Assembly (NCBI RefSeq): GCF_034638445.1
Contig: NC_132969.1
Coordinates: 255,423-319,422 of the forward strand
DNA from: Ciconia boyciana
Taxonomy: Eukaryota
DNA: 64,000 bases
Direction of reading: 5' to 3'
This document shows, piece by piece, positions 17,044 through 64,000 of the stretch; positions within the stretch are counted from its first letter, which is position 1, and each line of letters opens with the position of its first letter. The position numbers and the translations under genes are program-made. A model generated the notes under the pieces. That model searched no databases, was not told where the DNA came from, and was given only the letters and a program-made list of their open reading frames with translations.

Positions 17044-17049
17044 GTAGGG

Positions 17050-19623: not shown

Positions 19624-19739
19624 GTGGGGGCGAGTCCTGCCCCATGGCGGCCCCCGGCCCCCCCGCCCCGGCCGTGGCCGTGCTCCCCATGGAGGGGGCC
19701 CCCGTCGTCAGCCAGGCCCTGCCCAGCCAGCCCTGGTGA
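19624..19739 (+). CDS. MAZ: MAZ terminal coding exon with TGA stop
   Basis: Acceptor tctccccacag (to 19623). (G)GESCPMAAPGPPAPAVAVLPMEGAPVVSQALPSQPW* matches human ...VPVSSQPLPSQPW*. Stop at 19737-19739. Confidence 0.88.
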
Positions 19740-20145: not shown

Positions 20146-20151
20146 CGGCGC
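20146..20151 (+). terminator. MAZ: Candidate MAZ polyadenylation signal AATAAA
   Basis: cgcccaataaaccc, ~400 nt after the MAZ stop. Confidence 0.4.
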
Positions 20152-20164
20152 CTCCGTTGGCTCC

Positions 20165-20700: not shown

Positions 20701-20881
20701 CCCCGGGGGTTTCTCCCCCTCCCCAATTCCGGGTTTTTCCCCCCAAAACGCGGGGATCCCCCCCCCCCGGGTTTTTCCCCCCAACTTGTGGCGTTTTCAC
20801 CAAACTCGGAGGGTTTCCCCCAAAATTGTATTTCCCCCCAGGTTCTGGGGTTCCCCCAGGGTCGGGGGTCGGGGTCAGGGG

Positions 20882-21065
20882 TCACTCGGGGATGTCGATC
20901 ACCAGCTCGTCGTCCCCGTCCAGGGGTCGTCGCCGCTCCCCTCCCCGCGTCGCTCAGCATCCGCCGGGGACGGTGCTGGGGACGGGGGGCCCTTGGGGGG
21001 AGGGGCGGGGGAGGGGCCCTCCCGGGCCACGCCCCGAGGGGAAGGGCAAAGGGGGTGGGGGGCAG
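20882..21065 (-). CDS. INO80E: INO80E terminal coding region; the reading frame is broken twice by apparent 1-bp gaps
   Basis: On the minus strand after acceptor ccctcccccag, three successive frames read ..PRRMLSDAG / GEGSGDD / LDGDDELVIDIPE*. Human is [27 protein letters not shown]. Stop TGA is the reverse complement of 20882-20884. Adding one G to the gggg run and one C to the cccc run restores a single frame. Confidence 0.55.
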
Positions 21066-21099
21066 CTGGGGGAGGGGGTGGGCGTGAGTGACCCACGGT

Positions 21100-21550
21100 G
21101 CCCCCAAGCGCCCCCACAGCCCCCCAAGTGCCTCCTAAGTGCCCCACTGTGACCCCTAAGTGCCCCATTCTGACCCCCAAGTGCCCTCCAGGCCCCGAGT
21201 GTGTGTCCCCCCCAAGTACCCCATTGGGACCCCAAGTCCCCCGTGACCCCCAAGTGCCCCTCCCAGCCCCCAAGTGCCCCATTCTGACCCCCAAGTCCCC
21301 TCCCAGCCCCCAAGTGCCCTACTGTGACCCCAAATTCCCCCTGTGCCCCCTGGGACCCCAAGTGCCCCCCAGCCCCTCAAGGCTCCCCCAGCCCCCAAGT
21401 GCCCCCTGGGACCCCAAGTCCCCCCCAAGTCCCCTCCCAGCCTCCCAAGTGCCCCACTGTGCCCCCAAATTCCCCCTGTGCCCCCTGGGACCCCAAGTCC
21501 CCCCGCAGTGCCCCATTCTGACCCCCAGCCCCCAAGTGCCCCCCCCCCTC
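21100..21550. repeat. Minisatellite ccccaagtgcccc(attctga/ctgtga) array (INO80E intron)
   Basis: Read directly. Confidence 0.8.
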
Positions 21551-21558
21551 CCCTCTAC

Positions 21559-21810
21559 CTGCAGGCGCCGGGAGCCCTTGGGGCGGCGGGCGGGGCCGGG
21601 GCGGGGCCGCTCGGGCGGGGCGGCCCCTCGGGGGCCAAATACTCGGTGGGGAAGGGGCTGTAGGGGGAGGCCATCTGGGGGGGAGGGGTCGGTGAGGGCC
21701 CGCCCCTCCCCCATGGGGCGAGGGCGGCGTGGGGGAGGGGCGACTCACCATGTAGGGGGCAGGCGGCGGGGGAAGCCGGGCGGGGGAGGGGAGGGCGGGG
21801 GCTGCGCTTC
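21559..21810 (-). CDS. INO80E: INO80E coding exon (Pro/Ser-rich middle region)
   Basis: Minus strand: acceptor ccccccacag, then (R)[71 protein letters not shown]... matching human KRKRSPPLGG...SSRYPPFPSDYLALQLPEPSPL. Donor GTAGAG. Confidence 0.7.
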
Positions 21811-21895
21811 CTGTGGGGGGGGAGGGAGAAAGAGTGAAGGCCGGCGGCCATCTTGAGGGCTGGCGGCGGCCATCTTAGCCCCCTCCCCCCTTTAC

Positions 21896-21971
21896 CTCTT
21901 GGGTGGGGGAGGGTCCGCCCCCTTCGCCCCCTCCCCCTCGCTGTTGTCGGACGAGGCGGTGGCTTCCGAAT
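21896..21971 (-). CDS. INO80E: INO80E coding exon
   Basis: Minus strand: acceptor tcccccag, then (D)[24 protein letters not shown](R) matching human [27 protein letters not shown]. Donor GTAAAG. Confidence 0.8.
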
Positions 21972-22053
21972 CTGGGGGAGGGGGATGTGTGTGTGGGGGA
22001 GGGGTGTCCGTCCCCCTCCCCTCCATCTCTCCGTCCCCTCCCCGCCCCGGTAC

Positions 22054-22106
22054 CTGACGAATCCTCGTCCACGTTCTCGTACTGCAGCAACCGGTCCAGG
22101 AGGAAG
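22054..22106 (-). CDS. INO80E: INO80E coding exon
   Basis: Minus strand: acceptor cccccag, then (S)[17 protein letters not shown], identical to human. Donor GTACCG. Confidence 0.88.
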
Positions 22107-22181
22107 CTGGGGGGAGGGGAGGGCGTGAGAGGGGGGGAGGGGAGGGGTGGGGGGGGGGGGTGGGGGGTGGGGGAGGGGCAC

Positions 22182-22252
22182 CTCTTGTCCCGCGAGACCT
22201 TCAGCAGCTTGCGCTGGGCCCGGCGCAGCTCCTCCTGGAAGCACTCCTGCTC
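22182..22252 (-). CDS. INO80E: INO80E coding exon
   Basis: Minus strand: acceptor ccccccag, then [23 protein letters not shown] matching human [23 protein letters not shown]. Donor GTGCCC. Confidence 0.85.
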
Positions 22253-22329
22253 CTGGGGGGAGGGAGAGAACGGGGGGGAGGGGCACGGGGACACGCCCAC
22301 CCGCGCACGGCATTGTGGGTAGAGGCCTA

Positions 22330-23030
22330 CACACACACACACCCCCTCCCCTCCCCCACCCTGCCAGGCCCCTCGGGTTTCCCCCTCCCCCATCACCGGG
22401 TCCCCTCCCCTGGTGCGTTATGGGGACAGGGATTGACCCCTCCCCCCCCCCACTGCAATGCATTGTGGGTACAGACCCCCTCAGCCCCGCCCCTTCCGCA
22501 ATGCACTGTGGGTACAAACCCCCTCAGCCCCACCCCCGCAATGCATTGTGGGTACAGACCACCCTCAGCCCCGCCCCTTCTGCAATGCACTGTGGGTACA
22601 GACCCCACTCAGCCCCGCCCTCGCCATAACCCCACCCCCTCCACAATGCACTGTGGGTACAAACCCCTCAGCCCCGCCCCCAATGCACTGTGGGTACAGA
22701 CCCCCTCAGCCCCGCCCCTTCCGCAATGCACTGTGGGTACAGACCCCCCTCAGCCCCGCCCCTTCCGCAATGCACTGTGGGTACAGACCCTGCTCAGCCC
22801 CGCCCCTCGCCATAATCCCGCCCCCGCAATACACTGTGGGTACAAACCCCTCAGCCCCGCCCCCCAATGCACTGTGGGTACAGACCCCCCCTCAGCCCCG
22901 CCCCCTTCCGCAATGCACTGTGGGTACAGACCCCCCCTCAGCCCCGCCCCTTCCGCAATGCACTGTGGGTACAAACCCCCCTCAGCCCCACCCCCGCAAT
23001 GCACTGTGGGTACAAACCCCCTCAGCCCCC
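22330..23030. repeat. Minisatellite, ~57-bp unit caatgcactgtgggtacagaccccctcagccccgcccc(ttccg) (INO80E intron 1)
   Basis: ~12 tandem copies read directly. Confidence 0.85.
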
Positions 23031-23120
23031 ACCCCTCATCTCTCCCCCCGCCGTGCCCCCCCCCGCCGTGTCCCCGCCCCCGGCCGCGTCCCCGCCCCCG
23101 CCGTGCCCCGCCCTCCTCAC

Positions 23121-23204
23121 GTAGAGCAGGAGCTTGAGGCGCCGCTTGAGCGCCCGGTACCGCCGCTTGTAGCCGCCGCCATCACCCTCGGCCGCCCCGT
23201 TCAT
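23121..23204 (-). CDS. INO80E: INO80E first coding exon (MNGAAEGDGGGYKRRYRALKRRLKLLLY)
   Basis: Minus-strand ATG is the reverse complement of 23202-23204. Human is [27 protein letters not shown]. Donor GTGAG is the reverse complement of 23116-23120. Confidence 0.88.
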
Positions 23205-23480
23205 CCCCCGCCGCCGCCGCCGCCACGATCCCGGCAGCCCCGCGCCGCCGCCGCTCCCCATTGGCCGCCTCCTCCCCGCGCCGCCTCCCCATTGGCTCCC
23301 CACCCCCCGTTGCGCGTCCCGCCCCCTCCCCTCCCCATTGGCCGCCTCCCCGCCGCGCCGCGCGTCCCGCCTCCCCCCAAACCACTCCTCATTGGCTGCA
23401 GGCGCGGCGGGCGGGGAGCGCTATTGGCTGGCGCCGCGCGAGGCTCCGCCCCCCGCGGTGCGCGCGGACGGAAGGCGGCG
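23205..23480. promoter_or_regulatory. INO80E / HIRIP3 bidirectional promoter: five inverted CCAAT (ATTGG) boxes (23249, 23291, 23338, 23389, 23422) in a CpG-rich 277-bp spacer between divergent ATGs
   Basis: The repeated motif cccattggc and the head-to-head ATGs at 23204 (-) and 23481 (+) match the shared promoter arrangement of the human pair. Confidence 0.7.
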
Positions 23481-23512
23481 ATGGCGGCGCGGGGCGAGCG
23501 GAGCGGCCGAGG
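23481..23512 (+). CDS. HIRIP3: HIRIP3 putative first coding exon (MAARGERSGR..)
   Basis: ATG in gcggcgATGg. Human begins MAREKEMQEF. Donor GTAAAG at 23513. The assignment rests on position and weak similarity. Confidence 0.45.
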
Positions 23513-23646
23513 GTAAAGGGGGGCGCGGGGGTTGTGGGATACTGGGGGACCGGGGAGGGGCGGGGCGGGGAGGCGGTGACCCGCCCCGCCGCCGCCGCCG
23601 GAAGGGGCGGAGCCTGCGGGGGGAGGAGGCCCCGCCTCCCCGGAAG

Positions 23647-23948
23647 TGGGGCGGGAAAGGGTGGGAGGGAGGGGGAGAGGAAGAGGAAGAGGAAGGCGGG
23701 GAAAATGGGGAAAGCGGGGAGAAACGGGAGCGGGAAGGGGAAAAGGGCGGGGAAACGGGGGAGGGGCAAAGGGGAGGGGGAGGAGGAGGAAGAGGAAGGG
23801 GAGGAGGAGGAAGAGGAAGGGGAGGAGGAGGAAGAGGTGCCTCAGCAAAATGGGGTGAAAATGGCCAAAAACAGGAGCGGGCACCCAAAGGCCCTGAAAA
23901 TTGGGGGGGAAAGGTGCAAAATTGAGAGCGAGGAAGAGGAGGAAGAGA

Positions 23949-23979
<31 letters not shown>

Positions 23980-24586
23980 AGAGGAAGAGGAGGAGGAAGA
24001 GAAGCTGCCCCACAAAAACGGGGTGAAACCGGGCAAAAACAGGAGCGAGAACCAAAAGACCCCGAAAATTGGGGGGAAAAGGTGCAAAATTGAGAGCGAG
24101 GAAGAGGAGGAAGAGGAAGAGGAAGAGGAAGAGGAAGAGGAGGAGAAAGAGGAAGAGGAGGAGAAAGAGGAAGAGGAGGAGGAAGAGAAGGAAAAACAGA
24201 AGCTGCCCCAGAAAAATGGGGTGAAAACGGGCAAAAACGGGAGCGACAAACAAAAAAAGCCGCTGAAAACTGGGGGGAAAAGGGGCAAAATTGGGAGTGA
24301 GGAGGAAGAGGAAGAAGACGAGGAAGAGGAGAAGCTGTCCCAGAAAAATGGGGTGAAAACAGGCAAAAATGGGAGTGAGAACCGAAAAAAGCCCCTGAAA
24401 ATCGGGGGGAAACGGGGCAAAATGGAGAGTGGGGAGGAAGAGGAAGAGGAAGAGGAGGAGGAAAAGGAAGAGGAAGAACAAAAGCAGCCACGCCGGAAAA
24501 ATGGGGTGAAAACGGGCAAAAACGGGGGCGAGAATCAAAAAAAGCCCCTGAAAATTGGGGGGGAAAGCGGCAAAATGGAGAGTGAG

Positions 24587-24648
<62 letters not shown>

Positions 24649-25165
24649 AGACGAGAAAGAGAAGAAGCTGCCCCGGAAAAATGAGGTGAAAAAGGTCAAA
24701 AAGAGGAGCAAGGCTGAGAACGACAAAAAGCCCGCGAAAAATGGGGGGGAAAAGGGCAAAACGGACAGTGAGGAAGAGGAGGAGGAAGAGGAAAAGGAGG
24801 AAGAGGAGGAGGAAGAGCGGCCCGTGAAAAATGGGGTGAAAAAGGGCAAAACCAGGAGCGAGCATCAAAAAAAGCCCGTGAAAAATGGGGCAGAAAAGGG
24901 CAAAATGGAGAGTGAGGAAGAGGAAGAGGAGAAAGAGAAAGAGGAAGAAGAGGAGGAAGAGGAAGAAGAGGAGGAAAAGCCGCTCCTAAAATCCGGGGGG
25001 CAAAAGGCCCCCGCAAGGCCGGAGCCTGTGAAAAACGGGGCGAAAAGCGGCAAAACGGGGAGCAAGGAGGAAGAGGAGGAAGAGGCGGGGAGGAAGAGGC
25101 AGAGGCGGGAGTCTTCCTCCTCCTCTTCCTCGCTAGAGGAGGAAGAGCGGGCCCCCCCCCGCAAG
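23647..25165 (+). CDS. HIRIP3: HIRIP3 large acidic coding exon with ~8 internal repeats (EEEE..KLPQKNGVKTGKNGSENQKKPLKIGGKRGKMESEEEE)
   Basis: A 1.5-kb stop-free frame rich in Glu/Lys/Ser with KNGVK motifs, like the human HIRIP3 central region (PAKNGVAAE..). It ends ..SSSSSLEEEERAPPRK at the GTAACC donor (25166). The acceptor at 23645-23646 (ccccggaag|t) is tentative. Confidence 0.7.
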
Positions 25166-25179
25166 GTAACCGGTGCTCC

Positions 25180-25990
25180 TGGGGACGGGAAGGGGGTGGG
25201 GGATTTGGGGGTCTTTAATATTTGGGGGGGTCGGGGGGCATTTGGGGCGGGGGGATTTGGGGGGTCTTTAAGGCTGGGGGGCTCAGAGGGGGATTTGGGG
25301 GGTCTTTAATATTTGGGGGGCAGGGGGGGGATTTGGGGGCTCTTTAAGCCCGGGGGCTCAGAGGGGGATTTGGGGGCTGGGTGGGGCTTTTGGGGTCTGG
25401 GGGAGAATTGGGGGATCTTTAATATTTGGGGGCTCTGGAGGGGGCATTTGGGGGCTGGGGGATTTGGGGGCCCTGGGGGGTCTTTGACACCTGGGGGGCT
25501 TGGGAGGAGGATTTGGGGGGCTGGGGTGGATTTGGGGGGTCTTTAATATCGGGGGGCTCTGGAGGGGGCATTTGGGGGCTGGGGGGGGGATTTGGGGGTC
25601 TTTGACCCCTGGGGACTCAGGAGGGGATTTGGGGGGTTGGGGGGCTTTTGGTGTCTGGGGGGATTTGGGGGGTCTTTAATATTTGGGGGGCTCTGGAGGG
25701 GTTTATGGGGTCGGGGGGGATTTGGAGGGTCTTTAATATTGGGGGGCTGAGGAGGGGATTTGGGGGCTGGGGGGATTTGGTGTCTGGGGGAAATTTGGGG
25801 GGGTCTTTAATATTTGGGGAGGCTCAGGAGGGGCCATTTTGGGGCTGGGGGGACATTTGGTGCCTGGAGGGGGCGCTTTGGGGGTGCCTGGGCGTTATTT
25901 GGGATCCTGGGGGGATTTGGGGGTGCAGGGGGATTTGGGGGTGCCTGTGGGGGGCATTTACCATCTCGGGGGCTGCGGAGGGCACTCACA
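25180..25990. repeat. Minisatellite (~40 bp: gggggatttgggggtctttaatatttgggggctctggaggg) in a HIRIP3 intron
   Basis: Read directly. Confidence 0.8.
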
Positions 25991-26026
25991 CCCCCTCCCC
26001 CACGTTTTGGGGGAGCCCCCCCCCAG

Positions 26027-26191
26027 GTTTCGGGGCGCCGGGGGGGGGGCCCCCCCCCCGTGCGGCGCCTGAAGCGCTACATCCGGGCGTGCGGGGCGCG
26101 CCCCAACTACAAGAAGCTTTTGGGGGGCTGCCGCAGCCTGCGGGAGAGAGTTGGGGTGCTGCGGGGGAGCTGCAGGCCCTCGGCCTCACCG
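26027..26191 (+). CDS. HIRIP3: HIRIP3 coding exon (conserved C-terminal domain, part 1); it contains an apparent 1-bp gap
   Basis: Acceptor cccccccccag (AG 26025-26026). VSGRRGGGPPPVRRLKRYIRACGARPNYKKLLGGCRSLRERVGVLRG matches human AVMRLKRYIRACGAHRNYKKLLGSCCSHKERLSILRAE. The frame then shifts to ..GELQALGLT(G) (human AELEALGMKG). Donor G|GTACTG near 26192. Confidence 0.7.
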
Positions 26192-26199
26192 GTACTGGG

Positions 26200-27560
26200 G
26201 GGCCGGGGGGGCGGTTTGGGGTGCGGGAGGGGTTTGGGGGGCTACAGGGGGTTTGGGGGTGCGGGAGGGGTTTGGGGGGGCTACAGGGGGTTTGGGGTGC
26301 GGGAGGGGTTTGGGGGCGCTACAGGGGGTTTGGGGGGCTACAGGGGGTTTGGGGTGTGGGAGGGGTTTGGGGGGCTACAGGGGGTTTGGGGGTGTGGGAG
26401 GGGTTTGGGGGGCTACAGGGGGTTTGGGGTGTGGGAGGGGTTTGGGGGGCTACAGGGGGTTTGGGGGTGCGGGAGGGGTTTGGGGGCTACAGAGGGGTTT
26501 GGGGGTGTGGGAGGGGTTTGGGGGGCTACAGGGGGTTTGGGGTGCGGGAGGGGTTTGAGGGGGATACAGGGGGTTTGGGGGGCTACAGGGGGTTTGGGGT
26601 GCAGGAGGGGTTTGGGGGGCTACAGGGGGTTTGGGGGCATCAGAGGGGGTTTTGGGGTGCGGGAGCGGGTTTGGGGGATACAGGGGGGCTTGGGGGTCCC
26701 AGAGGGGGATTTGGGGTGCAGGGGGCTACGGGGGGTTTGGGGGGCTATGGGGGTTTGGGGGCATCAGAGGGGGTTTTGGGGTGCGGGAGGGGTTTGGTGG
26801 GCTACAGGGGGTTTGGGGGTGCGGGAGGGGGTTTGGGGGGCAGGGGGGTTTGGGGGGCTACAGGGGGTTTTGGGGTGCAGGAGGGGGTTTGGGGGGCTAC
26901 AGGGGGTTTGGGGGCATCAGAGGGGTTTTGGGGTGCGGGAGCGGGTTTGGGGGATACAGGGGGTTTGGGGAGGGGGCATCAGAGGGGGTTTTGGGGTGCG
27001 GGAGCGGGTTTGGGGGATACAGGGGGTTTGGGGGGCTACAGGGGGTTTGGGGGCATCAGAGGGGGTTTTGGGGTGCGGGAGCGGGTTTGGGGGATACAGG
27101 GGGGCTTGGGGGTCCCAGAGGGGGATTTGGGGTGCAGGGGGGGCTACGGGGGTGGGAGAGAGGAATTGGGGGGGGGGGGGGCATTTTGGGGGGCAGAGGG
27201 GCTCAGGAAGGGGTTTTGGGGGGCTGGGGGCGATTTGGGGGTGCAGGGGTTATTCTGGGGAGCAGGAGGGGCACAAAATGGGGCATTTGGGGGCCATTTT
27301 GGGGGTGCAGGGGTTATTTTGGGGAGCAGGGGTATTTTGGGGTCCAGGGGGACATTTTGGGGTCCGGGGGGCATTTTGGGGTGCAGGGCATATTTTGGGG
27401 AGCATGGGTATTTTGGGGTCCGGGGGGCCCTTTTGGCGCTCGGGGTGGGGCATTTTGGGGCTCAGACCGGGCATTTTGGGGCTCAGGGCAGCCTCGGGAA
27501 GGGGGTTTTGAGGGCTGGGGGTGATTTGGGGTGCGGGGGTGGTTTTGGGGGCCCCTGACT
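26200..27560. repeat. Minisatellite (~31 bp: ggggtttggggggctacagggggtttggggtgcgggagg) in a HIRIP3 intron
   Basis: Read directly; ~40 copies. Confidence 0.85.
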
Positions 27561-27579
27561 CCCCCATCCCCATCCCCAG

Positions 27580-27670
27580 GCCCCCTCCCTGGCTCGCTGC
27601 CGCCGCCTGAAACGCCGCCGCGAGGAAGCGGCCGAGCTGGCGGCGCTGGACGTTGCCAACATCATCCCCG
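27580..27670 (+). CDS. HIRIP3: HIRIP3 coding exon
   Basis: Acceptor ccccatccccag. APSLARCRRLKRRREEAAELAALDVANIIP(G) matches human TPSLGKCRALKEQREEAAEVASLDVANIISG. Donor GTAACA at 27671. Confidence 0.85.
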
Positions 27671-27752
27671 GTAACACCCCCTCCCCACCGTACCCCTAAA
27701 CTCCCCCTCAATTTTTCGGGGCACCCCTTAAACCCCCTTTTTATTCCCTCAG

Positions 27753-27877
27753 GCCGAGCCCGCAGACGCAACGGCTGGAGCCCCCAAATCCCCCGCGAGG
27801 AAACGGGGGCCCCCCTTCCTCCCGTCGACTGGTCGCGCCTTCGGGGCGTCATCAGCTCCGACGGCGAGAGCGATTAA
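27753..27877 (+). CDS. HIRIP3: HIRIP3 terminal coding exon with TAA stop
   Basis: Acceptor ttattccctcag. (G)[40 protein letters not shown] matches human GRPRRRTAWNPLGEAAPPGEL...PPDWSHMRGIISSDGESN*. Stop at 27875-27877, followed by an A15 tract and ATTAAA. Confidence 0.88.
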
Positions 27878-28169
27878 CCCCCCCCAAAAAAAAAAAAAAA
27901 TTTAAAAATTAAACTATATTCATTCCAAAGAGATTTTTTGGGGGTGTTTTCACGTTCTTTTGGGGGTGCTGTAAAAATTTGGGGGGGGTCAATATTTACG
28001 CTGACGGAGGAAAAAACCCGGGGGGCGTTTTGGGGGGGGTCTTCTCCTTCCAGCTGGAAAAGATCTCGCCCCGTCCGGAGAATTTGTTCTTCTAATTTCT
28101 TGTGCCGTTTCATATCCGATAAAACTTTATCCAGGCGAGCTTCCCGCTTCTGCCCGCGCGTCGGGGGGC
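27874..28169 (-). CDS. PAGR1: PAGR1 terminal coding exon; as written the ORF stops at 27874-27876 and overlaps the HIRIP3 stop, but the conserved C-terminus is read in another frame with its stop at 27989-27991
   Basis: Minus strand: acceptor aaatccggcag, then (G)[45 protein letters not shown].. matching human [44 protein letters not shown]. The +2 frame reads ..[10 protein letters not shown] (human ..LFPRQRKY*). The as-written frame runs through the poly-T tract (..[10 protein letters not shown]). Confidence 0.7.
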
Positions 28170-28290
28170 CTGCCGGATTTATCGGGGGGCTAGCGAATAG
28201 CGGGGTCCCCCCTTTTATTTAATTTAAAAAAAAAAAAAAAAAGAAAAAGAAAAGAAAAGGATGGAGGCGGAGGGATGGGGGCGCGCTTAC

Positions 28291-28373
28291 CCGGCGTTCG
28301 CCGCCGATCGATGAGGGAATTTTTGGGGGTGACGGGTTCGTCGTCGAAGTCGAACTCGGTGGGGACGGGCGGC
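28291..28373 (-). CDS. PAGR1: PAGR1 coding exon 2
   Basis: Minus strand: acceptor ttttccccttccag, then (K)[27 protein letters not shown](G). Human is [28 protein letters not shown]. Donor GTAAGC. Confidence 0.88.
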
Positions 28374-28379
28374 CTGGAA

Positions 28380-28560
28380 GGGGAAAAAGCAAATAAAAAT
28401 AAAAATAAATTCTGTAATAAAAGCAAAATCTTCTAATAAAAGCAAAATCCTATAATAAAAACCAAATCTTCTAATAAAAACAAAATCTTCTAATAAAAAC
28501 AAAATCTTCTAATAAAACCAAAATCCTATAATAAAACCAAAATCCTATAATAAAACCAAA
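28380..28560. repeat. AT-rich ~20-bp tandem repeat (aaaatcttctaataaaaacaaa)
   Basis: Read directly; at the 3' edge of PAGR1 intron 1 (minus orientation). Confidence 0.85.
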
Positions 28561-30125
28561 ATCTTCTAATAACAATAATATCGTACATTATCATGTTATT
28601 GTTTGTATTATTATATGCATTACATATGTATAATAATATTAAAATATAATATGATAATATAGTAAATAATATTTAATATTACATCATATTACATGATATA
28701 ATATTAAACTATATTATACAATAATACTCTATATTATATAATCACATTTTATATATTATATAATAATATGTAACATAATATTATATTATATATATTTAAA
28801 TATATAACATCATAATATAATGTATTATATATATAATATGTATTTTATAATATATAACATATAATAATACATTAGTATATATTAACACCTAATAACATAT
28901 ATTAATATGTAATATATATTTTTATATATAATACATCATATATGTATATTTAATATATTATATATATACTACATAACAAAACAATAATGTTATCATAGTA
29001 TAATACTATTTTTATGTATTATAAATTAGTAATAGTATCGTAATTATTAATCGTATCATATTATTATGATATTATGATAATCATACGGTGTTATTAATTG
29101 TATGACACAGTATAATACTATTTTTAATGTATTATAAATTATTAATAGTATCGTAATTATTAATTGTATCATATTATTATAATATTATGATAATCATAGG
29201 GTGTTATTAATCATGACATAGTATAATAGTAATTTTTATACATTATAAATTATTAATAGTATCGTAATTATTAATTGTATCATATTATTATTATATTATG
29301 ATAATCATAGGGTGTTATTAATCGTATGACAGAGTATAATACTATTTTTTATATATTATAAATTATTAATAGTATCGTAATTATTAATCATATCATATTA
29401 TTATAATATGATAATCATAGGGTGTTATTAATCGTATGACACAGTACAATACTATTTTGTATGTATTATAAATTATTAATAGTATTGTAATTATTAATCA
29501 TATCATATTATGATATTATAATCACACGGAGTTATTAATCGTATGACATAATATAATACTATTTTTTATGTATTATAAATTATTAATAGTATTGTAATTA
29601 TTAATTGTATCATATTATTATGCTATTATGATAATCATAGGGTGTTATTAATCGTATGTCATAGTATAATACTACATTTTAGGTATTATAGATTATTAAT
29701 AGTATTGTAATTATTAATCGTATCATATTATTATGATATTATGATAATCACATGCTGTTATTAATCGTATGACATAGTATAATACTATTTTGTATGTATT
29801 ATAAATTATTAATAGTATTGTAATTATTAATCGTATCATATTATTATGCTATTATGATAATCATACCGTGTTATTAATCGTATGTCATAGTATGATACTA
29901 CATTTTATGTATTATAAATTATTAATAGTATTGTAATTATTAATCGTATCATATTATTATGCTATTATGATAATCATACGGTGTTATTAATTGTATGTCA
30001 TAGTATGATACTACATTTTATGTATTATAAATAATTAATAGTATCGTAATTATTAATCGTATCATATTATTATGATATTATAATCACACGGTCTTATTAA
30101 TCGTATGACATCATACAACACCACG
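28560..30125. repeat. AT-rich satellite, ~118-bp unit (..tattataaattattaatagtatcgtaattattaatcgtatcatattattatgatattatgataatcatagggtgttattaatcgtatgacacagtataatactatttt..), ~13 copies inside PAGR1 intron 1
   Basis: Read directly; estimated ~80% A+T inside a window that is otherwise >65% G+C. Confidence 0.9.
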
Positions 30126-30208
30126 TAGAAAAAACGCTAAAAAGAATAAAAACGAGGGGAGGGGATTTGCCCCCCCCCCCGCAATCGGCCGCGGCGCCGC
30201 CATCTTAC

Positions 30209-30576
30209 TTCTCCTCCTCTTCCTCCTCGCTTTCGGGCTGCCCGGCGGAGCGAGGTTCCTCCTCGCTGTCGGGTTCGGGGGTCGGCGCGCGCCGAGGGAG
30301 AGGAACGTGGCGGAGAGGAAGGCTCCCGGTTTCGGCGATGAGTTCGTAAAGTCGTCGGATATCGGGGGGCGGCGGTAACCAACCGTCGGGGGGTTCCCCT
30401 TCTTCTTCGTCGCTCCGAGGAACCCCCCAATCTTCTTCCTCTTCTTCCTCGAGCGTCGCCGTTTCTTCCGCCGCTGGGTTTTCTCCTTCGAGCGGCGGCG
30501 GTTCCGCGGCGTCGGCGACGGCGAGGGATTGCAGCCCCGACGTCACCTCCGCCGCTTCCTCGCTCGCCGGCTCCAT
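30209..30576 (-). CDS. PAGR1: PAGR1 coding exon 1 (acidic N-terminal region)
   Basis: Minus-strand ATG in gcggccATGg is the reverse complement of 30574-30576. [88 protein letters not shown] matches human PAGR1 (EVTSGLQALAVED...DWCVPCSDEE..EIQRLYELLAAHGTLEL..LPRRPPTPEAQSEEE). Donor AA|GTAAGA is the reverse complement of 30203-30208. Confidence 0.85.
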
Positions 30577-30599
30577 GGCCGCTTGCTTGAGGAGGGGAG

Positions 30600-32450
30600 G
30601 GGAGGGGTCAGGCGGCCCCCAAAAAAGCTGCGATTCACCCCAAAAGGGGATGGGAGGAACCGGCGGGCCAGGCCTGAGGTGATCCCGGTGCCCGTAGGGC
30701 CGCCATTTTGAGGCCTGAGGTGGTCCCATCACCCCTGGGGCCGCCATTTTGAGCCCTGAGGTGATCCTGGGGCCGCCATTTTGCGCCCTGAGGTGATCCC
30801 ATCACCCCTGGGGCCACCATGTTGAGCCCTGAGGTGGTCCCGTCACCCCTGGGGCCACCATTTGGAGCCCTGAGGTAGTCCTGGGGACGCCATTTTGCAC
30901 CCTGAGGTGATCCCATCACCCCTGGGGCCACCATGTTGAGGCCTGAGGTGGTCCCGTCACCCCTGGGGCCACCATTTGGAGCCCTGAGGTAGTCCTGGGG
31001 ACGCCATTTTGCGCCCTGAGGTGATCCCATCACCCCTGGGGCCACCATGTTGAGGCCTGAGGTGGTCCCGTCACCCCTGGGGCCACCATTTGGAGCCCTG
31101 AGGTAGTCCTGGGGACGCCATTTTGCGCCCTGAGGTGATCCCGTCACCCCTGGGGCCACCATGTTAAGCCCTGAGGTGGTCCCGTCACCCCTGGGGCCGC
31201 CATTTTGAGCCCTGAGGTGATCCTGGGGCCGCCATTTTGCGCCCTGAGGTGATCCCATCACCCCTGGGGCCACCATGTTGAGCCCTGAGGTGGTCCCGTC
31301 ACCCCTGGGGCCACCATTTGTAGTCCTGGGGACGCCATTTTGAGGCGTGAGGTGATCCCATCACCCCTGGGGCCACCATGTTGAGGCCTGAGGTGGTCCC
31401 GTCACCCCTGGGGCCACCATTTGGAGCCCTGAGGTAGTCCTGGGGACGCCATTTTGCGCCCTGAGGTGATCCCGTCACCCCTGGGGCCACCATGTTAAGC
31501 CCTGAGGTGGTCCCGTCACCCCTGGGGCCACCATTTGGAGCCCTGAGGTAGTCCTGGGGACGCCATTTTGCGCCCTGAGGTGATCCCGTCACCCCTGGGG
31601 CCACCATGTTAAGCCCTGAGGTGGTCCCGTCACCCCTGGGGCCGCCATTTGGAGCCCTGAGGTAGTCCTGGGGACGCCATTTTGAGGCGTGAGGTGATCC
31701 CATCACCCCTGGGGCCACCATTTGGAGCCCTGAGGTGATCCTGGGGCCGCCATTTTGCGCCCTGAGGTGATCCCATCACCCCTGGGGCCGCCATGTTGAG
31801 CCCTGAGGTGGTCCCGTCACCCCTGGGGCCGCCATTTGGAGCCCTGAGGTGGTCCCGTCACCCCTGGGGCCGCCATTTGGAGCCCTGAGGTGGTCCCATC
31901 ACTCCTGGGGCCGCCATTTTGACCCCTGAGGTGGTCCTGGGACGGCTATTTTGAGGCCTGAGGTGGTCCCATCACCCCTGGGGCCACCATGTCAAGCCCT
32001 GAGGTGGCCCTGGGGCCATCATTTTGGGCCCTGAGGCAATCCCATCACTCCTGGGGCCACCATTTAGAGCCCTGAGGTAACTTCACACCCCTGGGGCCAC
32101 CATTTTGAGCTCTGAGGTGGTCCCATTACCTCTGGGGCCAGCATGTTAAGCCCTGAGGTAGTCCTGGGGCCACCATTTTGAGCCCTGAGGTGATCCCATC
32201 ACCCCTGGGGCCACCATTTTGAGCCTCGAGGCCATCCCATCACCTCAGAGGCCGCCATGTCGAAGCCTGAGGTGATCCCGTCCCCCCTGGCACCGCCATG
32301 TCGAGCCCTGAGGTAACCTCACACCCCTGTGGCCGCCATTTTGAACCCCGAGGCGACCCTCACACCCGCAGGGCCGCCATCTTGAGGCCTGAGGTAACTC
32401 CAGCCCCCTCACACCCCTGCAGCCGCCATGGCGAGCCCTGAGGCGACCCC
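30600..32450. repeat. Minisatellite, ~41-42 bp unit (gccctgaggtggtcccgtcacccctggggccaccatgttgag) with a ~120-bp higher-order structure, immediately upstream of the PAGR1 ATG
   Basis: ~45 tandem copies. Each unit carries a Kozak-like gccaccatg on the plus strand. Confidence 0.85.
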
Positions 32451-32589
32451 TGCACCCCCCTCACGCCCCTTCCCAACACTCACCCGGCCCAGGCGGCCTC
32501 CGGACCGGCCGGGGACAAGGACGGGCCCCTCAGACGCCGGACGCCATTTTGTTCCAGCTCCCGCCTTTTTTCCGCTCTCCCCCCTCCCC

Positions 32590-50159: not shown

Positions 50160-52140
50160 GGGAAAGGGGGGAGGAAATGGGGAGGGAAATGGGGGGAGGG
50201 GAGGGAAATGGGGGGAGGGGGTAGGGGGAAGGGGAAGGGGAAATGGGGGAGGGGGAGGGGGAAGGAAATGGGGGAGGGGAAAAGGGGGAGGGGAAATGGG
50301 GGGAAGGGAAATGGGGGAGGGGAAATGGGGGAGGGGGGAGGGGAAAAGGGGGGAGGAAATGGGGAGGGGGAAATGGGGGAGGGGGGAAGGAAATGGGGGA
50401 GGGGAAATGGGGGAGGGGGAAATGGGGGAGGGGGAAATGGGGGGAGGGGGGAAGGGGAAATGGGGGAGGGGAAATGGGGGGAGGGGGGAGGGGAAATGGG
50501 GGAGGGGGGAGGGGAAGGGAAATGGGGGAGGGAAAGGGGGAGGGAAAGGGAGGGAAGGAAATGGGGGGGAATGGGGGGGAAGGGAAATGGGGGAAGGGGG
50601 AAGGGGAAATGGGGGATGGGGGAGGGGAAGGGAAAATGGGGGAGGGGGGAAGGGGGAGAAGGGGGCAAATTGGGGAGGGAAAGAGGGGGAAAGGAGGGGG
50701 AAGGGGGGAAATTGGGGGGAAAGGGGGATTGGGGGAGAAAAGCCATGGGGGGAAAAAGCAAGTTTTTGGGGAAAGGGATGATTTGGGGTCATAAAGGCAG
50801 GTTTGGGGAAAAATTGGAAATTTTGTGAAGAATTGGGTGATTTTGGTGAAAAAAAGGATGATTTGGGGGAAAATGGAGTGATTTGGGTGAAAAGAGGGAT
50901 GATTTGGGCGAAAAGAGGGATGATTTGGGGAAAAATGGGGTGATTTTGGGAAAAAAGATGATTTTGGGAAAAAAGGGGTGATTTGGGGAAAAATGGGGTG
51001 ATTTGGGGAAAATGGGTAATTTTGTGGAAAATGGGGTGGTTTTGGTGAAAAAAGGATGATTTGGGGAAAAATGGGGTCATTTGAGGGGAAAAGGGGGTTT
51101 GGGGAAAAATGGGGTGATTTGGGTGAAAAGAGGGATGATTTGGGGAAAATGGGGTGATTTCAGTGAAAAAAGGGGTGATTCTGGGAAAAATGGGGTGATT
51201 TGGGTGAAAAGAGGTGATTTGGGGGAAAATGGGGTGATTTGGGGAAAAATGGGGTGATTTGGGTGAAAAGAGGGATGATTTGGGGAAAATGGGTGATTTT
51301 GGTGAAGAAATGGGTGATTGGGGGGAAAATGGGGTGATTTGGGTGAAAAAGAGGTGATTTTGGGTGAAAAATGGGGTGATTTGGGAGAAAAGAGGGATGA
51401 TTTGGGGAAAATGGGGTGATTTGGGTGAAAATGGGGTAATTTCAGTGAAAAATGGGTGATTTTGGGAAAAATGGGGTGATTTGGGTGAAAAGAGGTGATT
51501 TGGGGGAAAATGGGGGTGATTTGGGGAAAAATGGGGTGATTTGGGTGAAAAGAGGGATGATTTGGAGAAAAATGGGTGATTTTGGTGAATAAATGGGTGA
51601 TTTGGTGAAAAATGGGGTGATTTGGGTGAAAAAGAGGTGATTTTGGGAAAAATGGGGTGATTTGGGTGAAAAAGAGGGATGATTTTGGGGGAAAATGGGG
51701 TGATTTCAGTGAAAAAATGGGTGATTTGGGGGAAAATGGGGTGATTTGGGTGAAAAGAGGTGATTTGGGGGAAAAATGGGGTGATTTGGTGAAAATGGGG
51801 TGATTTGGGTGAAAAGAGGGATGATTTGGGGGAAAATGGGGTGATTTGGGTGAAAATGGAGTAATTTCAGTGAAAAAATGGGTGATTTTGGGAAAAATGG
51901 GGTGATTTGGGTGAAAAGAGGGATGATTTTGGGGAAAATGGGGTGATTTCAGTGAAAAATGGGTGATTTGGGGAAAATGGGGTGATTTGGGTGAAAAGAG
52001 GTGATTTGGGGGAAAAATGGGGGTGATTTGGGGAAAATGGGGTGATTTGGGTGAAAAGAGGGATGATTTGGGGGAAAATGGGTGATTTTGGTGAAGAAAT
52101 GGGTGATTGGGGGGAAAATGGGGTGATGTGGGGGGCAAAA
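50160..52140. repeat. Minisatellites (ggggagggaaatggg-type, then ~25-30 bp ggggaaaatggggtgatttgggtgaaaagag) in a SEZ6L2 intron
   Basis: Read directly. Confidence 0.8.
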
Positions 52141-52184
52141 GGGGGTGGTTTGGGGCTCCCGGGGGGGGGCTCGGGGGGGCTCAC

Positions 52185-52404
52185 CCTGGTAGCGCAGCCC
52201 CAGGAGGGGGGGTCCCTGGCGCGGCCCCTCGGAGAGCAGCTCCAGCAGGAGGGTGCGGGCCGGGCTCAGGACCCCCCCCCGCGGGACGTCGTCCAGGTCC
52301 GAGTCGAAGAGGAGCGGGGCGCGGGGCTCGGGGCCCCCCCGGATGGAGAGGGTGCGGGGGGGCACAAGGGGGTGACCCCCCAAAGCCCCAACCCCCCCCT
52401 CCCT
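52185..52404 (-). CDS. SEZ6L2: SEZ6L2 CUB domain (C-terminal half) exon, 220 nt
   Basis: Minus strand: ..PRTLSIRGGPEPRAPLLFDSDLDDVPRGGVLSPARTLLLELLSEGPRQGPPLLGLRYQ(G). Donor GTGAGC is the reverse complement of 52179-52184. The acceptor at gtgcag (~52405-52407) is tentative. This exon is the same length as the CUB-3b exon. Confidence 0.6.
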
Positions 52405-53270
52405 CTGCACCCCCTCCCCGCTCCGTGGCGCCCCCCACCCTGCCCCCAATGCCCCCCTGCCCCCCATGGACCCCCCTGCCCCCCATGCCCCCCACCCCCC
52501 AAATCCCACCCCATGCCCCCCTTTCCCCCACCCCTTTCCCCCATGGACCCCCCCCCATGCCCCCCCCACCCCCCCAAATCCCCCCTTTCCCCCCACCCCT
52601 GCCCCCCAATGCCCCCCACCCCCATGCCCCCCTTGTCCCCCACCCCTGCCCCCATGGACCCCCCCCCCCATGCCCCCCCCACGCCCCAAATCCCCCCTTT
52701 GCCCCCACCCCGCCCCCATGGACTCCCCCGCCCCCCATGCCCCCCACGCCCCAAATCCCCCTTTGCCCCCACCCCTGCCCCCCATGCCCCCCACCCCCCT
52801 TTCCCCCACCCCTGCCCCCCAGTGCCCCCCACCCCCAAATCCCACCCCCATGCCCCCTTGCCCCCCACCCCGCCCCCATGGACCCCCCGCCACCTCATGC
52901 CCCCCCACCCCCAAATCCCCCCTTTGCCCCCACCCCTGCCCCCCAATGCCCCCACCCCCATGCCCCCCTTGTCCCCCACCCCCGCCCCCATGGACCCTCC
53001 CCTGCCCCCATGCCCCCCACCCCCTTTCCCCACCCCTGCCCCCCAATGCCCCCACCCCCAAACCCCCTTGTCCCCCACCCCCGCCCCCATGGACCCCCAT
53101 GCCCCCCCACGCCCCAAATCCCCCTTTGCCCCCACCCCTGCCCCCCATGCCCCCCACCCCCTTTTCCCCCCACCCCTGCCCCCCAGTGCCCCCCACCCCC
53201 AAATCCCACCCCCATGCCCCCTTGTCCCCCACCCTCGCCCCCAATGGACCCCCTGCCCCCCATGGACCCC
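52400..53270. repeat. C-rich minisatellite (~40 bp: ccccatgccccccacccccaaatcccc..) in a SEZ6L2 intron
   Basis: Read directly. Confidence 0.8.
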
Positions 53271-53278
53271 CCCGTTAC

Positions 53279-53445
53279 CGGTCGGCGTCCTCGTCCAGCG
53301 CCAGCCGCTCGAAGGCCAAGTGCAGGCGGTGCCCGGGCGGGGCCTCCAGCAGCCACCGGCAGCTCCGGTTGGCCCCCGGCCCCCGGCCCCCTCGGGGTCT
53401 CCAGCCGCCCCCGCGTCGCGTTGGGCACCGCACCCCCGCACCCCG
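53279..53445 (-). CDS. SEZ6L2: SEZ6L2 CUB domain (N-terminal half) exon
   Basis: Minus strand: ..SCRWLLEAPPGHRLHLAFERLALDEDAD(R). Donor GTAACG is the reverse complement of 53273-53278. The expected upstream CGG.. start appears in another frame (CGGAVPNATRGRLE..). The acceptor at ~53446-53448 is tentative. Confidence 0.6.
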
Positions 53446-53599
53446 CTGCCGGACCGCGTCAGCCACGCCCCCCGGGCAGCGGGACACGCCCCCCGGGAGG
53501 ACACGCCCCCGGGAGGACACGCCCCTCCTCGAGGACCCTCCCCAAACAACACTTCCCCCCCGCCCCCTCCCGGACCCCCCAGTAGACATGCAGGCGCTA

Positions 53600-54200
53600 A
53601 GGAAGCCACGCCCCCTCTGAAAAGCCACGCCCCCTCTTAAAAGCCACGCCCCTCTTAAAAGCCACGCCCCACTCTGAAAAGCCACGCCCCCTCTGAAAAC
53701 CACGCCCCTTAAAAGCCACGCCCCTCTGAAAAAGCCACGCCCCCTCTTAAAAGCCACGCCCCTCTGAAAAGCCACGCCCCTCTGAAAAGCCACGCCCCTC
53801 TTAAAAGCCACGCCCCTCTGAAAAGCCACGCCCCTCTGAAAAGCCACGCCCCTCTTAAAAGCCACGCCCCCTCTGAAAAGCCACGCCCCATCTGAAAAGC
53901 CACGCCCCTTAAAAGCCACGCCCTCTGAAAAGCCACGCCCCTCTTAAAAGCCACGCCCTCTTAAAAGCCACGCCCCCTCTGAAAAGCCACGCCCCTCTTA
54001 AAAGCCACGCCCTCTGAAAAGCCACGCCCCTCTTAAAAGCCACGCCCCTTAAAAGCCACGCCCACTCTGAAAAGCCACGCCCCCTCTGAAAAGCCACGCC
54101 CCTTAAAAGCCACGCCCCACTCTGAAAAGCCACGCCCCTCTTAAAAGCCACGCCCTCTTAAAAGCCACGCCCCCTCTGAAAAGCCATGTCCCCTCTGAAA
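53600..54200. repeat. ~17-bp tandem array AAAAGCCACGCCCCTCTG(A), ~35 copies, each carrying a KLF/Sp CACCC/GC-box consensus (CCACGCCC)
   Basis: Read directly; lies inside a SEZ6L2 intron. Confidence 0.85.
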
Positions 54201-54229
54201 GCCACGCCCCTCCGGATGGCCACGCCCCT

Positions 54230-57240
<3,011 letters not shown>

Positions 57241-61560: not shown

Positions 61561-62339
61561 GCCGGGTCCGTCCCTCTCGCTGCGGCGGGGGCGGGGCGGG
61601 CGCTGCCGGGGAGGGGCTGGCTCCGCCCACGGCCCCCCATCCCCCGATCCATCCCCCTCCCTCCCCCGGACCCCTCCCCAGTCCCCCTCCCCCGAAACCC
61701 CCACCCCCCAAATCCCCCCAGCCCCCAAATCCCCCTCCCCCCGAAACCCCCCATCTCCCCCAAATCTGCCCCCGAACCCCCCCATCCCCCCCCAACCCCC
61801 CCCAATCCATCCCCCTCCCCCCGGACACCCCTCCCCCAGCACCCCCATTCATCAGCCCCTCCCCCCTCGGGATTCCCGCCCCCATTTAAAGGGACCCCCT
61901 CAAAATGGGGACCCCCCCCCAAATGGGGACCCCCTATAGAAGGGGACCCCCAAATCGATGTCCCCCCCAGCCCCCCAGCCCTGGGGACCCCTGCCCCCCG
62001 GAGAGTCCGGGGGCCCTAGGCCCCGCCCATGGACGCTTGGCCCCGCCCACGGAGCTTGTAGTCACGCCCCTTTGTCTGGCCACGCCCCTTTTCTATAGGG
62101 GCTGCGCCCCTTAGAGCCCCCGGCTGTCGGGGGCCCCGCCCACAGAGCGCTAACCCCGCCCACCTTCCCTCTAGCCCCGCCCACAGATCGCTGTCCCCGC
62201 CTCTTTTCCATAGCCCCGCCCCTTTCCATTAACCCCTGGTGGGTCTTAGCCACGCCCACACACTTTAGGCCCCGCCCACCCATCATTTCCCCCGCTCCTT
62301 TCCACGCCCCCACCCCCTCAGGTCCCGCCCCTTCCCCAC

Positions 62340-63420
62340 AGACCCCGCCCCATCCCAGGCAGCGCGTCTGCGCATGCGCCGCCCCGTCTCGTTTGCCGGC
62401 CCCGCCCCGCGCCCTATTTGAGTGGCGGGAAGGGGGGCCGTTGCCAAGGAGACGGGGGCGGGATTTGGCGCCAAGCGGTTGCTAGGGAGACGGGGGCGGG
62501 GGCTGTTGCCCAATGGGGAGCGCCGCGGACCCGACGGCCAATCGCCGTTGGTGTCGGCCACGCGGCGGCTCCGCCCCCTCCCGATAAACAGCCAATCGGC
62601 TGCGCGCTGGGGCGGGGCGGACTACGCGCCCCAGCGGCCCCTGCGCGCGGTGTAATGGCGGACGGCGGCGCTATGGTCACGTGTGCGGCGCGGGGCCGCT
62701 CTAGGCGATGGGAGGACTGCGGCTCTATGGTCTGGGGCGCCGCACAGTTCCCCCCCCAGCCGTCCCGCCGTTGACTCAGCCATGACGTCATGGGAAGAGA
62801 CGGGTGACATCACTGCGCCACCTCCGTGTGTCGTCCACCCCCCGCCGCCGCCTCGGCCCGCTCCGGCCCCCGCAACCCCCCGCCGGGGCCGCCGCCATCT
62901 TTGCCTTTCCCTCAGCAGCCGCTTCCCGCCTTTCCGGCCGCTCCCCGCTCTGCGCATGCGCCGCCCCAATCCTGCCCCGGCAACAGCGCCTCCGTCCAAT
63001 CACCGCCCGCCCCGCCCTCATCGTCCCGCCCTCTCCTCCCTCCCCAGGCTCCGCCTCCTCCTTCCCCTCAGGGCTCCCGCCAATCACCCGCTTCCCTCTT
63101 CACCGGCTTGCGCGCCGATTGGCTCCGCGCCTCCGCCCTGCCCCGCGCATGCGCTCCCCCAAACCCCCGCCCCACTCCTGGCGCGCCCTCTCTCCCCTCG
63201 CCTTCACTCCCACCCCCCCTACAACGCATGCGCGCGCCGCGCCGTCCTCCACTTCCCCTCCTCCCCAGACCCCCTCACGTCCGGCGCATGCGCCTCACCG
63301 CCCGCTGGGGCTGCCACTTCCGGTCCGCCCGCCGGCGCCATCTTAGATCCGGGGCGGCGGAGGGAAGCGGCGGCAGCGGCGGGGACCGGGGTTCGGTTCC
63401 CCCCCCCGCGGCCTCTTCCC
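62340..63420. promoter_or_regulatory. CpG island with NRF1 palindromes (62372, 62952, 63148, 63228, 63288), CCAAT boxes (62537, 62592, 62997, 63080, and inverted 63117) and YY1-like gccatctt (62896, 63340); probable promoter of a neighbouring gene running off the window
   Basis: Motifs read directly. The island is 2-3 kb upstream of the SEZ6L2 ATG. No recognisable coding exon falls in the remaining ~600 bp. Confidence 0.45.
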
Positions 63421-64000
63421 CGCGGGATGGCGCCGCGTTAAGGGGTCGGGGGACCCGCCGAGCCCCCGAGGCTCCCCGGGGTCCCCCTTCCTCCCTCCCC
63501 TCCCTTCCTCCCGGTCCCTCAGCCCCGCCGCCGGTGAGGCCCAGCGGGGGCCCTCATGGCCGCCGCCCGCCTCCCCCGGCCCCTCACCCAGCCCTAGAGC
63601 CCGGGGGGCCCCCCTCCTCCCCGCCCGTTTTCGGGGTTTTTAAGCGCTCCTTTCCTTCTTTTCCCCCTTGATTTTTTGGGGTGAAATCTCGCCTTTTTGG
63701 GGCATCCCGCAGCCGCTGCCCCCCTGCCCCACACCCCCCGGAGCTGGAGCCGCCGGGGGGACGAGGGGTTGGGCCCCCCCACCGCCCGCCGCTACCGGAG
63801 CTGGAGCCGCGGGGCCGCCGGTGAGAGCGGGGGGGGGGACCTGGGCCCCTTGGTGTGGGGCGGGGGAGTTGGGGGCAGGGGATGGGGGGATGGAGCCCTG
63901 GGGCACTTGGGGGGCAGAGGACGGAGCTCTGGGGCGCTTGTGGGGCTGAGTGTGGGTCGCTTGTGGGGCAGAGCTTGGCCTTGTGGGGCTGAGCCTGGAG

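Follow-up and report, generated by a model that had tools for sequence, protein, structure and literature searches.

An array of SP/KLF consensus sites in a SEZ6L2 intron of Ciconia boyciana is probably an ordinary dot-chromosome intronic minisatellite

In chicken, simple repeats cover a median of 7-93% of dot-chromosome introns and are near zero elsewhere, a state described as 'sequence stuttering', in which the repeated copies often span the exon-intron border and intron lengths vary among individual chickens (PMC12954441). Analysis of the zebra finch T2T assembly shows that more than 70% of dot-chromosome introns consist of tandem repeat, mostly minisatellites (10.1101/2025.10.17.683159). 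Degenerate minisatellites of 10-30 bp have been reported to make up 51% of dot-chromosome euchromatin (10.1101/2025.10.14.682431).

The window, by which we mean the whole analysed stretch of 64,000 nucleotides, carries an array of SP/KLF boxes that a preliminary description had placed inside an intron of SEZ6L2. Our analysis agrees with this placement. The gene around the array lies on the minus strand, the exons flanking the array match Sushi and CUB families in Pfam, and the best-named homologues are SEZ6L2. Minus-strand translations of the unique stretches give CUB and Sushi domains in alternation (Pfam), and in a protein search a 420-aa concatenate of exons matches SEZ6L2 of mammals, turtles and fishes, along with bird proteins. 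The match of the concatenate to Grus japonensis is 61% over the full length and that to Larus michahellis is 87% over the C-terminal 45%. The intron containing the array is named I3 here, and its limits and flanking exons are as follows.

53447-55057, minus strand: intron I3, from the first Sushi exon to the exon of the first half of the second CUB domain (exon mapping, splice sites)
55058-55247, minus strand: upstream exon, Sushi domain (Pfam Sushi, E=2.4e-05; tblastn)
53279-53446, minus strand: downstream exon, first half of the second CUB domain (translation, tblastn)

Over 29 aa, the translated CUB exon is 93% identical to Grus and 90% identical to Rhea. An apparent 1-bp frame shift is present in its G/C runs around 53373-53393, and the exon gives GCGGAVPNATRGRLETPRGPG in one frame and a further stretch of protein in another. 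This indel is seen against crane, rhea and turtle, and it is either a homopolymer error of the assembly or a genuine frame shift.

Tandem repeats occupy 71% of the window, with 36 blocks reaching 300 bp or more, and what is free of repeats corresponds to exons. The GC content is 56-74% throughout except for one AT-rich island. The plus strand carries the 3' exons of EIF3C, a proline-dehydrogenase (Pro_dh) gene and a C2H2 zinc-finger exon, which we read as MAZ. EIF3C, MAZ and SEZ6L2 are all carried by chicken dot chromosome 38 (supplement of PMC12954441), and the dot-chromosome location of the gene studied here is indirect, by synteny with that chromosome. The distance between EIF3C and MAZ is about 10 kb in the window versus at least 51 kb in the chicken GGswu assembly.

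Several other parts of the window are repetitive or otherwise distinctive. The AT-rich island (28000-30111, GC 0.235 amid 60-70% GC) consists in part of a 113-bp x10 array of 90% identity (28994-30111) and of AT-rich repeats of 20-50 bp (28629-28968). Just past the 3' end of SEZ6L2, at 30673-32398, lies a 41-bp x43 array with a 114-bp higher order. Its unit contains GCCGCCATTTTG, which we take to be a YY1-like consensus, and GCC[AG]CCAT[TCG]TT is matched 21 times; here too a minisatellite has a well-known factor site at its centre. About 6 kb of 18/36/54-bp repeats (GGTGGTCATGGTGACGCT and its relatives), with periods that are multiples of 9, extend over 10608-16654 upstream of the zinc-finger exon (16872-17050) and hold 500-aa open reading frames on either strand. 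At the presumed start of SEZ6L2, the stretch 62000-63750 is CpG-island-like (o/e 0.7-1.1), with plus-strand copies of CCACGCCC at 62080, 62250 and 62302 in the same orientation to SEZ6L2 as those of the array.

Within I3, TRF places one array at 53603-54229 (period 18, 34.7 copies, 88% matches, 8% indels, consensus AAGCCACGCCCCTCTGAA), extending beyond the end at 54200 that had been given before. This main array and the related elements around it are listed below.

53603-54229, minus strand: main minisatellite, 34.7 units of 16-20 bp (TRF, unit list, unit alignment)
54202-54300, minus strand: diverged distal edge of the array, CCACGCCC at 54202, 54220 and 54293, spacers degenerate
53463-53525, minus strand: exon-proximal variants, GCCACGCCCC at 53463 and GGACACGCCCC three times (16-bp x2.6, 53482-53525) (sequence, TRF)
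54447-54576, minus strand: small related arrays, a perfect 14-bp x3.4 array of GCCCCTCAGACCAC at 54447-54494, which carries the core of the main array, and CCACGCCCC at 54554 and 54569 (TRF, motif positions)
54533-55055, minus strand: GC-box (GCCCCGCCCC) arrays, 14-19-bp units with 116/143-bp higher-order repeats (TRF)

Since the gene is on the minus strand, the GC-box arrays precede the array of GGGGCGTGGC in the transcript and the exon comes last. The full transcript order of I3 is the donor, the GC-box arrays, GGGGCGTGGTCTGA x3, (GGGGCGTGGCTTTTMAGAG) x34, GGGGCGTGTCC x3 and the acceptor. The main array begins 157 bp upstream of the second-CUB exon, spanning 157-780 bp from the acceptor and lying more than 800 bp from the donor.

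The unit of the main array reads AAGCCACGCCCCTCT[G/T]AA on the plus strand and GGGGCGTGGCTTTT[C/A]AGAG on the gene-sense (minus) strand. When the array is cut at each core, the units are 16-20 bp in length with a mode of 18, and not 17 bp as first described; the commonest are GCCACGCCCCTCTTAAAA (n=7), GCCACGCCCCCTCTGAAAA (n=5) and GCCACGCCCCTCTGAAAA (n=4). Alignment of 34 units reveals that the 9-bp core GCCACGCCC is at least 97% identical and that variation is confined to the length of the C-run/CTC tract and to one G/T position. The core is present in 95% of the units. However, the spacer's A-run shows no more variation than the core does, and we therefore rejected the invariance of the core within the array as a sign of selection. 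The count of about 35 boxes given in the preliminary description is confirmed by 35 copies of CCACGCCC on the plus strand of 53600-54300 (34 of them in the main array and one at 54293), but their perfection holds only for the 9-bp core, and one unit, GCCATGTCCC at 54183, is decayed. In the whole window, CCACGCCC occurs 61 times on both strands, against 7.47 +/- 2.94 expected from 100 dinucleotide-preserving shuffles of the window (shuffle maximum 15). The neighbouring array had been called rich in CCCCGCCCC, and 17 copies of this box are indeed present in 54230-55100.

Among the 35 short-period arrays of the window, the main array has the highest unit identity (88%), which is consistent with recent turnover. 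Units of 16, 17, 18, 19 and 20 bp are intermixed and no reading frame is kept, ruling out a coding tandem repeat. A scan of 52000-56000 against Rfam gave no family at gathering score, and the dimer of the unit, sought as an exact pattern in metagenome contigs, gave no match.

The core GCCACGCCC is identical to the KLF1 consensus CCACGCCC(A), of which the main array holds 34 exact CCACGCCC copies, the ninth base being mostly C. A CTCF-like reading of CAGAGGGGCG was also considered and rejected, as a base would have to be added to fit the CTCF motif and other birds do not share the CAGAG portion. The description of the boxes as a canonical KLF/SP core is borne out by the published KLF1 consensus CCACGCCCA, of which the CpG-to-TpG variant CCATGCCCA has been used as a 'broken' control (10.1101/2025.01.27.635162). 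In human cells, binding to arrays of such motifs (as many as seven, spaced 15-40 bp apart) is cooperative and works through destabilisation of nucleosomes (10.1101/2025.01.27.635162). Our literature search on SEZ6L2 in birds and on Sp1-site VNTRs gave nothing directly relevant, and nothing links the array to the neuronal expression that had been mentioned beside it.

The preliminary description had suggested that an array of this size could be a transcription-factor sponge, titrating SP/KLF proteins through many high-affinity sites gathered in one place. However, SP/KLF proteins are abundant, and the roughly 35 sites per allele stand beside 61 CCACGCCC and 60 CCCCGCCCC (121 in all) in the 64-kb window, with far more sites in the GC-rich dot chromosomes and in the CpG-island promoters of the whole genome. 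The contribution of the array would be negligible, which makes a sponge role scarcely credible.

Comparison of the SEZ6L2 loci of a crane (L001), a rhea (L002), a gull (L003), a kagu (L004), the painted turtle (L005) and a hare (L006), with exons mapped, reveals homologous arrays in other birds. The gull and kagu contigs end before I3 and are informative on the 3' introns only. In the crane, 15 of the 18 copies of GGGGCGTGGC in the locus fall in the orthologous I3 (18075-18543), as do all 19 of the rhea locus (18446-18962). In both birds these copies are on the sense strand immediately upstream of the CUB exon, and GGGGCGGGGC repeats are present in the 5' part of the intron, so that the order of GC-box array, GGGGCGTGGC array and exon, and their orientation, are identical in the window, the crane and the rhea. 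The spacers differ between species. Units of the crane are 15-20 bp long, for example GGGGCGTGGCTTGAGGGGA, and those of the rhea form a 120-bp higher-order repeat; some crane variants (GGGGCGTGGCTTTTTGAGG) resemble the window unit GGGGCGTGGCTTTTCAGAGG beyond the core. The length of I3 is about 1.6 kb with 41 cores in the window, 0.65 kb with 15 cores in the crane and 1.1 kb with 19 cores in the rhea. The same intron of the painted turtle contains a 46-bp x5 array with GGGGCGGGG cores, which are GC boxes only, and the hare locus shows nothing comparable to the array. In a second turtle, Lepidochelys (L007), a GC-box array is seen at 3101-3299, and the CUB2a exon was not found in the stretch examined. 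In the gull (about 34 units, 11261-12210) and the kagu (about 19 units, 9552-10534), GGGGGCGTGGCC units fill another intron, located before the transmembrane exon; this intron has no GGGGGCGTGGCC array in the window or the crane. The preliminary description had taken variability or absence in close relatives, combined with a lack of accessibility and factor occupancy, to speak against its proposal. In the distant relatives compared here the picture is mixed: unit, spacer and copy number are highly variable, but the array is present.

These homologues also bear on the quality of the assembly. Coverage dropouts of HiFi reads in dot-chromosome euchromatin correlate with minisatellites (10.1101/2025.10.14.682431), and the adjacent CUB exon has its apparent 1-bp frame shift in G/C runs, so in a region this difficult to sequence the array, or its copy number, might be an assembly error. 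However, two independently assembled genomes of other birds have homologous arrays in the same position and the unit variants are orderly, which leaves at most the copy number uncertain. We consider an assembly artefact highly improbable.

A shared core in orthologous introns could be taken as evidence of function, and its value depends on how other introns of the gene behave. All twelve SEZ6L2 introns of the window (33495-58531) were therefore compared with those of the crane (14351-32533) by the cosine similarity of 10-mer counts. Orthologous introns average 0.27, against 0.0075 for non-orthologous introns (maximum 0.11). The value for I3, 0.48, is level with those for I1 (0.46), I8 (0.47) and I12 (0.51). 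Repeat cores common to introns of the window and the crane include GGGGTCCCA (32 vs 37 copies), GGTGCTATG (64 vs 65 copies), CCCCATTTC and CTTAAAGCG; the rhea has the cores of I1 and I2, and the gull and kagu have those of I9-I12. Nearly every SEZ6L2 intron retains its own repeat family between species over long times, and these families go back further, and are tied more closely to their position, than the 'recent, independent expansion' of chicken stuttering introns. Because nearly all introns share repeat cores with their crane orthologue, we rejected core conservation as evidence of function, and the conservation of the SP/KLF-like core does not indicate selection for factor binding.

The 5' end of the intron suggests where the family came from. 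The I3 donor of the window reads GTGAGGGGCGGGGCCTGGGGGGCGGGGCC and the GC-box arrays begin at this donor. In both the window and the crane, I3 starts with GTGAGGGGCGGGGCC followed by tandem copies; the crane intron opens with GTGAGGGGGCGGGGCC, after which CTGAGGGGGGCGGGGCC occurs three more times. The other array-bearing intron of the gull (I11) has the donor GTGAGGGGGCGGGGCC with the array of about 34 GGGGGCGTGGCC directly after it. The first unit of the painted turtle array (4800-5050) is the end of the Sushi exon together with the splice donor (GGCCTGTGGGGGTGAGCCCCGCC), and later units read GGCCTGCAGGGGTGAACCCCGCC. The turtle array resembles 'exon stuttering', which has been reported as unknown outside birds. 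From the donors of window, crane, turtle and gull, the family appears to have arisen by stuttering of a GC-box-like motif next to the 5' splice site. GGGGCGTGGC is GGGGCGGGGC with one G-to-T substitution, and we infer that the GGGGCGTGGC unit was derived from the donor GC box by this single change. Derivation of the unit from a segment of the adjacent CUB exon (TGGCTCCTGGAGG vs TGGCTCCCGGGGG in the rhea) was also considered and rejected, since the similarity is too weak by eye and the segment is not at the exon border.

The start of the family at a 5' splice site would also suit a role at the level of RNA or DNA structure, in which G-runs every 18 nt act as splicing enhancers of the hnRNP H/F type, or in which a G-rich non-template strand gives rise to R-loops, G-quadruplexes or recombination. 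In favour of such a role, the sense strand is the G-rich one in the window, crane, rhea, gull and kagu. However, the G-rich strand of the main array contains no canonical G4 (four runs of at least three G, loops of 1-7 nt), against 16 in the remaining intron, and a G-quadruplex role of the array itself appears unlikely. On the sense strand, several further SEZ6L2 introns are rich in C (G fraction 0.01-0.22), so G-richness is no general requirement, and the distances of the main array from the acceptor (157-780 bp) and the donor (over 800 bp) seem long for a G-run enhancer. Taken as a whole, a structural role is very unlikely.

What distinguishes I3 from other introns of the gene is its CpG content. 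With GC 0.69, CpG o/e 0.70 and 101 CpG over the 1661 bp scored, it falls within the sequence criteria of a CpG island (500 bp or more, GC of 55% or more, CpG o/e of 0.65 or more). The main array by itself has a CpG o/e of 0.87, and most arrays of the window have 0.1-0.4. The CpG o/e values of the introns in the three birds are as follows.

I3: window 0.70, crane 0.76, rhea 0.79
Other internal introns: window 0.16-0.27, crane 0.08-0.55, rhea 0.28-0.57

I3 is thus the only internal intron that is CpG-island-like in all three birds. When the gene is analysed in 500-bp windows, CpG-island-like sequence appears at the 5' end, in I3 and at the 3' end, in the window as well as in the crane. Decayed cores (GGGTGTGG / GGGCATGG) in I3 number 0 of 41 in the window, 0 of 15 in the crane and 1 of 20 in the rhea, counts in which the copies are not independent and whose pattern would be mimicked if a single intact unit had lately re-expanded. 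The adjacent intron of the window (52348-53277) contains 37 decayed GC boxes (GGGGTGGGG / GGGGCAGGG) versus 5 intact GGGGCGGGG, and its crane counterpart (18739-19559) contains 29 intact GGGGCGGGGC; the repeat of the window looks like a CpG-deaminated form of the GGGGCGGGGC array of the crane. The agreement of three lineages suggests that I3 has escaped methylation-driven decay. Such retention of CpG, which a purely neutral reading does not predict, suggests protection from methylation or selection on the core.

It is possible, though unlikely, that I3 is a conserved intragenic CpG island in which SP/KLF proteins would occupy the roughly 35 sites and the upstream GC boxes, evict nucleosomes and keep the intron unmethylated while the rest of the dot chromosome is heavily methylated, making it an enhancer, silencer or boundary for SEZ6L2 or a neighbour. 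Sp1 sites reportedly protect the CpG island of mouse Aprt from methylation. Every unit of the array matches the KLF consensus, and motif arrays are bound cooperatively in human cells (10.1101/2025.01.27.635162). The position of I3 as the sole internal intron within the island criteria in three birds, the near absence of decayed cores in these lineages next to an intron whose GC boxes have decayed in the window, and the constant order and orientation of the elements also speak for such an island. However, core conservation is common to nearly all introns and is no evidence of selection on factor binding, and copy number, spacer and unit length are unconstrained (15-41 cores, in units of 15-20 bp or in 120-bp higher-order repeats). 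The hare has no array, the painted turtle has GC boxes only, and in the gull and kagu the motif array is in a different intron. A high CpG content can also be produced by recent amplification of a CpG-bearing unit.

A bolder proposal, which is also improbable, is that the array is the visible part of an ancient sauropsid CpG island within SEZ6L2, dating back to crown birds or earlier, with GC boxes in turtles as its precursor. Such an island would be self-sustaining, with SP/KLF sites keeping the intron unmethylated, CpGs being preserved and repeat instability regenerating the sites, and on a hypermethylated dot chromosome it might have taken on a role as a regulator or as a stable hotspot of recombination.

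The reading that we prefer, with a probability of roughly 0.6, is that the array is an ordinary non-coding intronic minisatellite of a dot chromosome whose transcription-factor sites were inherited from its seed and are probably bound opportunistically. The preliminary description had allowed that it might be only an expandable minisatellite, and this is the best-supported reading given that 71% of the window is tandem repeat and that this is the published state of dot-chromosome introns. Local repeat instability, by slippage or unequal exchange ('sequence stuttering'), would have made the array and would maintain it. The unit would descend from the GC-box-like sequence at the 5' splice site of I3 (GTGAGGGGCGGGGCC), with a G-to-T change turning GGGGCGGGGC into GGGGCGTGGC, and this variant family would have been in I3 before the split of palaeognaths and neognaths. 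Independent turnover in each lineage since then would have led to the differing spacers, unit lengths and copy numbers. If the unit was inherited from a seed, so was the perfect SP/KLF consensus in each unit, which then did not arise to serve a function. Each unit is an optimal site whose CpG is intact, so ubiquitous SP/KLF proteins probably bind the array and protect it from methylation, and opportunistic binding of this kind would explain the CpG-island-like state without a selected effect on SEZ6L2 expression. Against this reading, expansion of the same core in a second intron of the gull and kagu hints at a bias favouring this core of highest affinity. A chromatin-level role for I3, as the sole internal CpG-island-like intron in three birds, is possible.

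As one more repeat-filled intron of the kind that has hampered the assembly of dot chromosomes, the array adds little when taken alone. It nevertheless indicates that arrays of consensus factor sites arise as a by-product of repeat instability, and hence that enhancer calls based on motifs need a high bar on dot chromosomes. The locus is also tractable for asking whether SP/KLF arrays protect DNA from methylation on a hypermethylated chromosome.

Among known systems, homotypic SP/KLF clusters resemble the array in their tandem consensus GC/GT boxes. The SV40 21-bp repeats contain six GC boxes, the ALOX5 promoter has a variable number of Sp1-site repeats, and the cystatin B gene has the dodecamer CCCCGCCCCGCG. 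A promoter repeat with a variable number of Sp1 sites is described for canine COX-2 (PMC3035645). These clusters have 3-12 sites, are located in promoters and have measured effects, whereas the roughly 35 sites of I3 lie deep in a gene body. The array is also a G-rich minisatellite like the INS VNTR (ACAGGGGTGTGGGG) and the HRAS1 minisatellite, in which zinc-finger proteins or other factors bind the G-rich unit and expression can vary with repeat length. However, those repeats are in flanking regions and have associations between allele and expression, and the array here is intronic. I3 resembles orphan (intragenic) CpG islands in that about 1.6 kb falls within the criteria and in that three birds retain it as a stretch rich in CpG inside a gene body otherwise poor in it. 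Unlike such islands, it consists almost entirely of tandem repeats, and the likeness is one of sequence criteria.

The nearest likeness is to the stuttering minisatellites of birds (PMC12954441). The array lies in an intron of a gene found on chicken chromosome 38 and is made of imperfect tandem copies of a short motif of apparently local origin. As in avian stuttering, the introns are almost wholly repeat and the exons are unique, length and structure differ by species, and part of the family starts at the exon-intron border. Two features set the array apart. In contrast to its neighbouring arrays, it has retained its CpGs. Furthermore, published stuttering is recent and independent in each species, whereas the core described here is common to the orthologous intron of the window neognath, the crane and the rhea. 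Intron-specific families, and here a CpG-island-like state as well, can thus persist since before the divergence of crown birds, which qualifies the view of stuttering as recent and independent.
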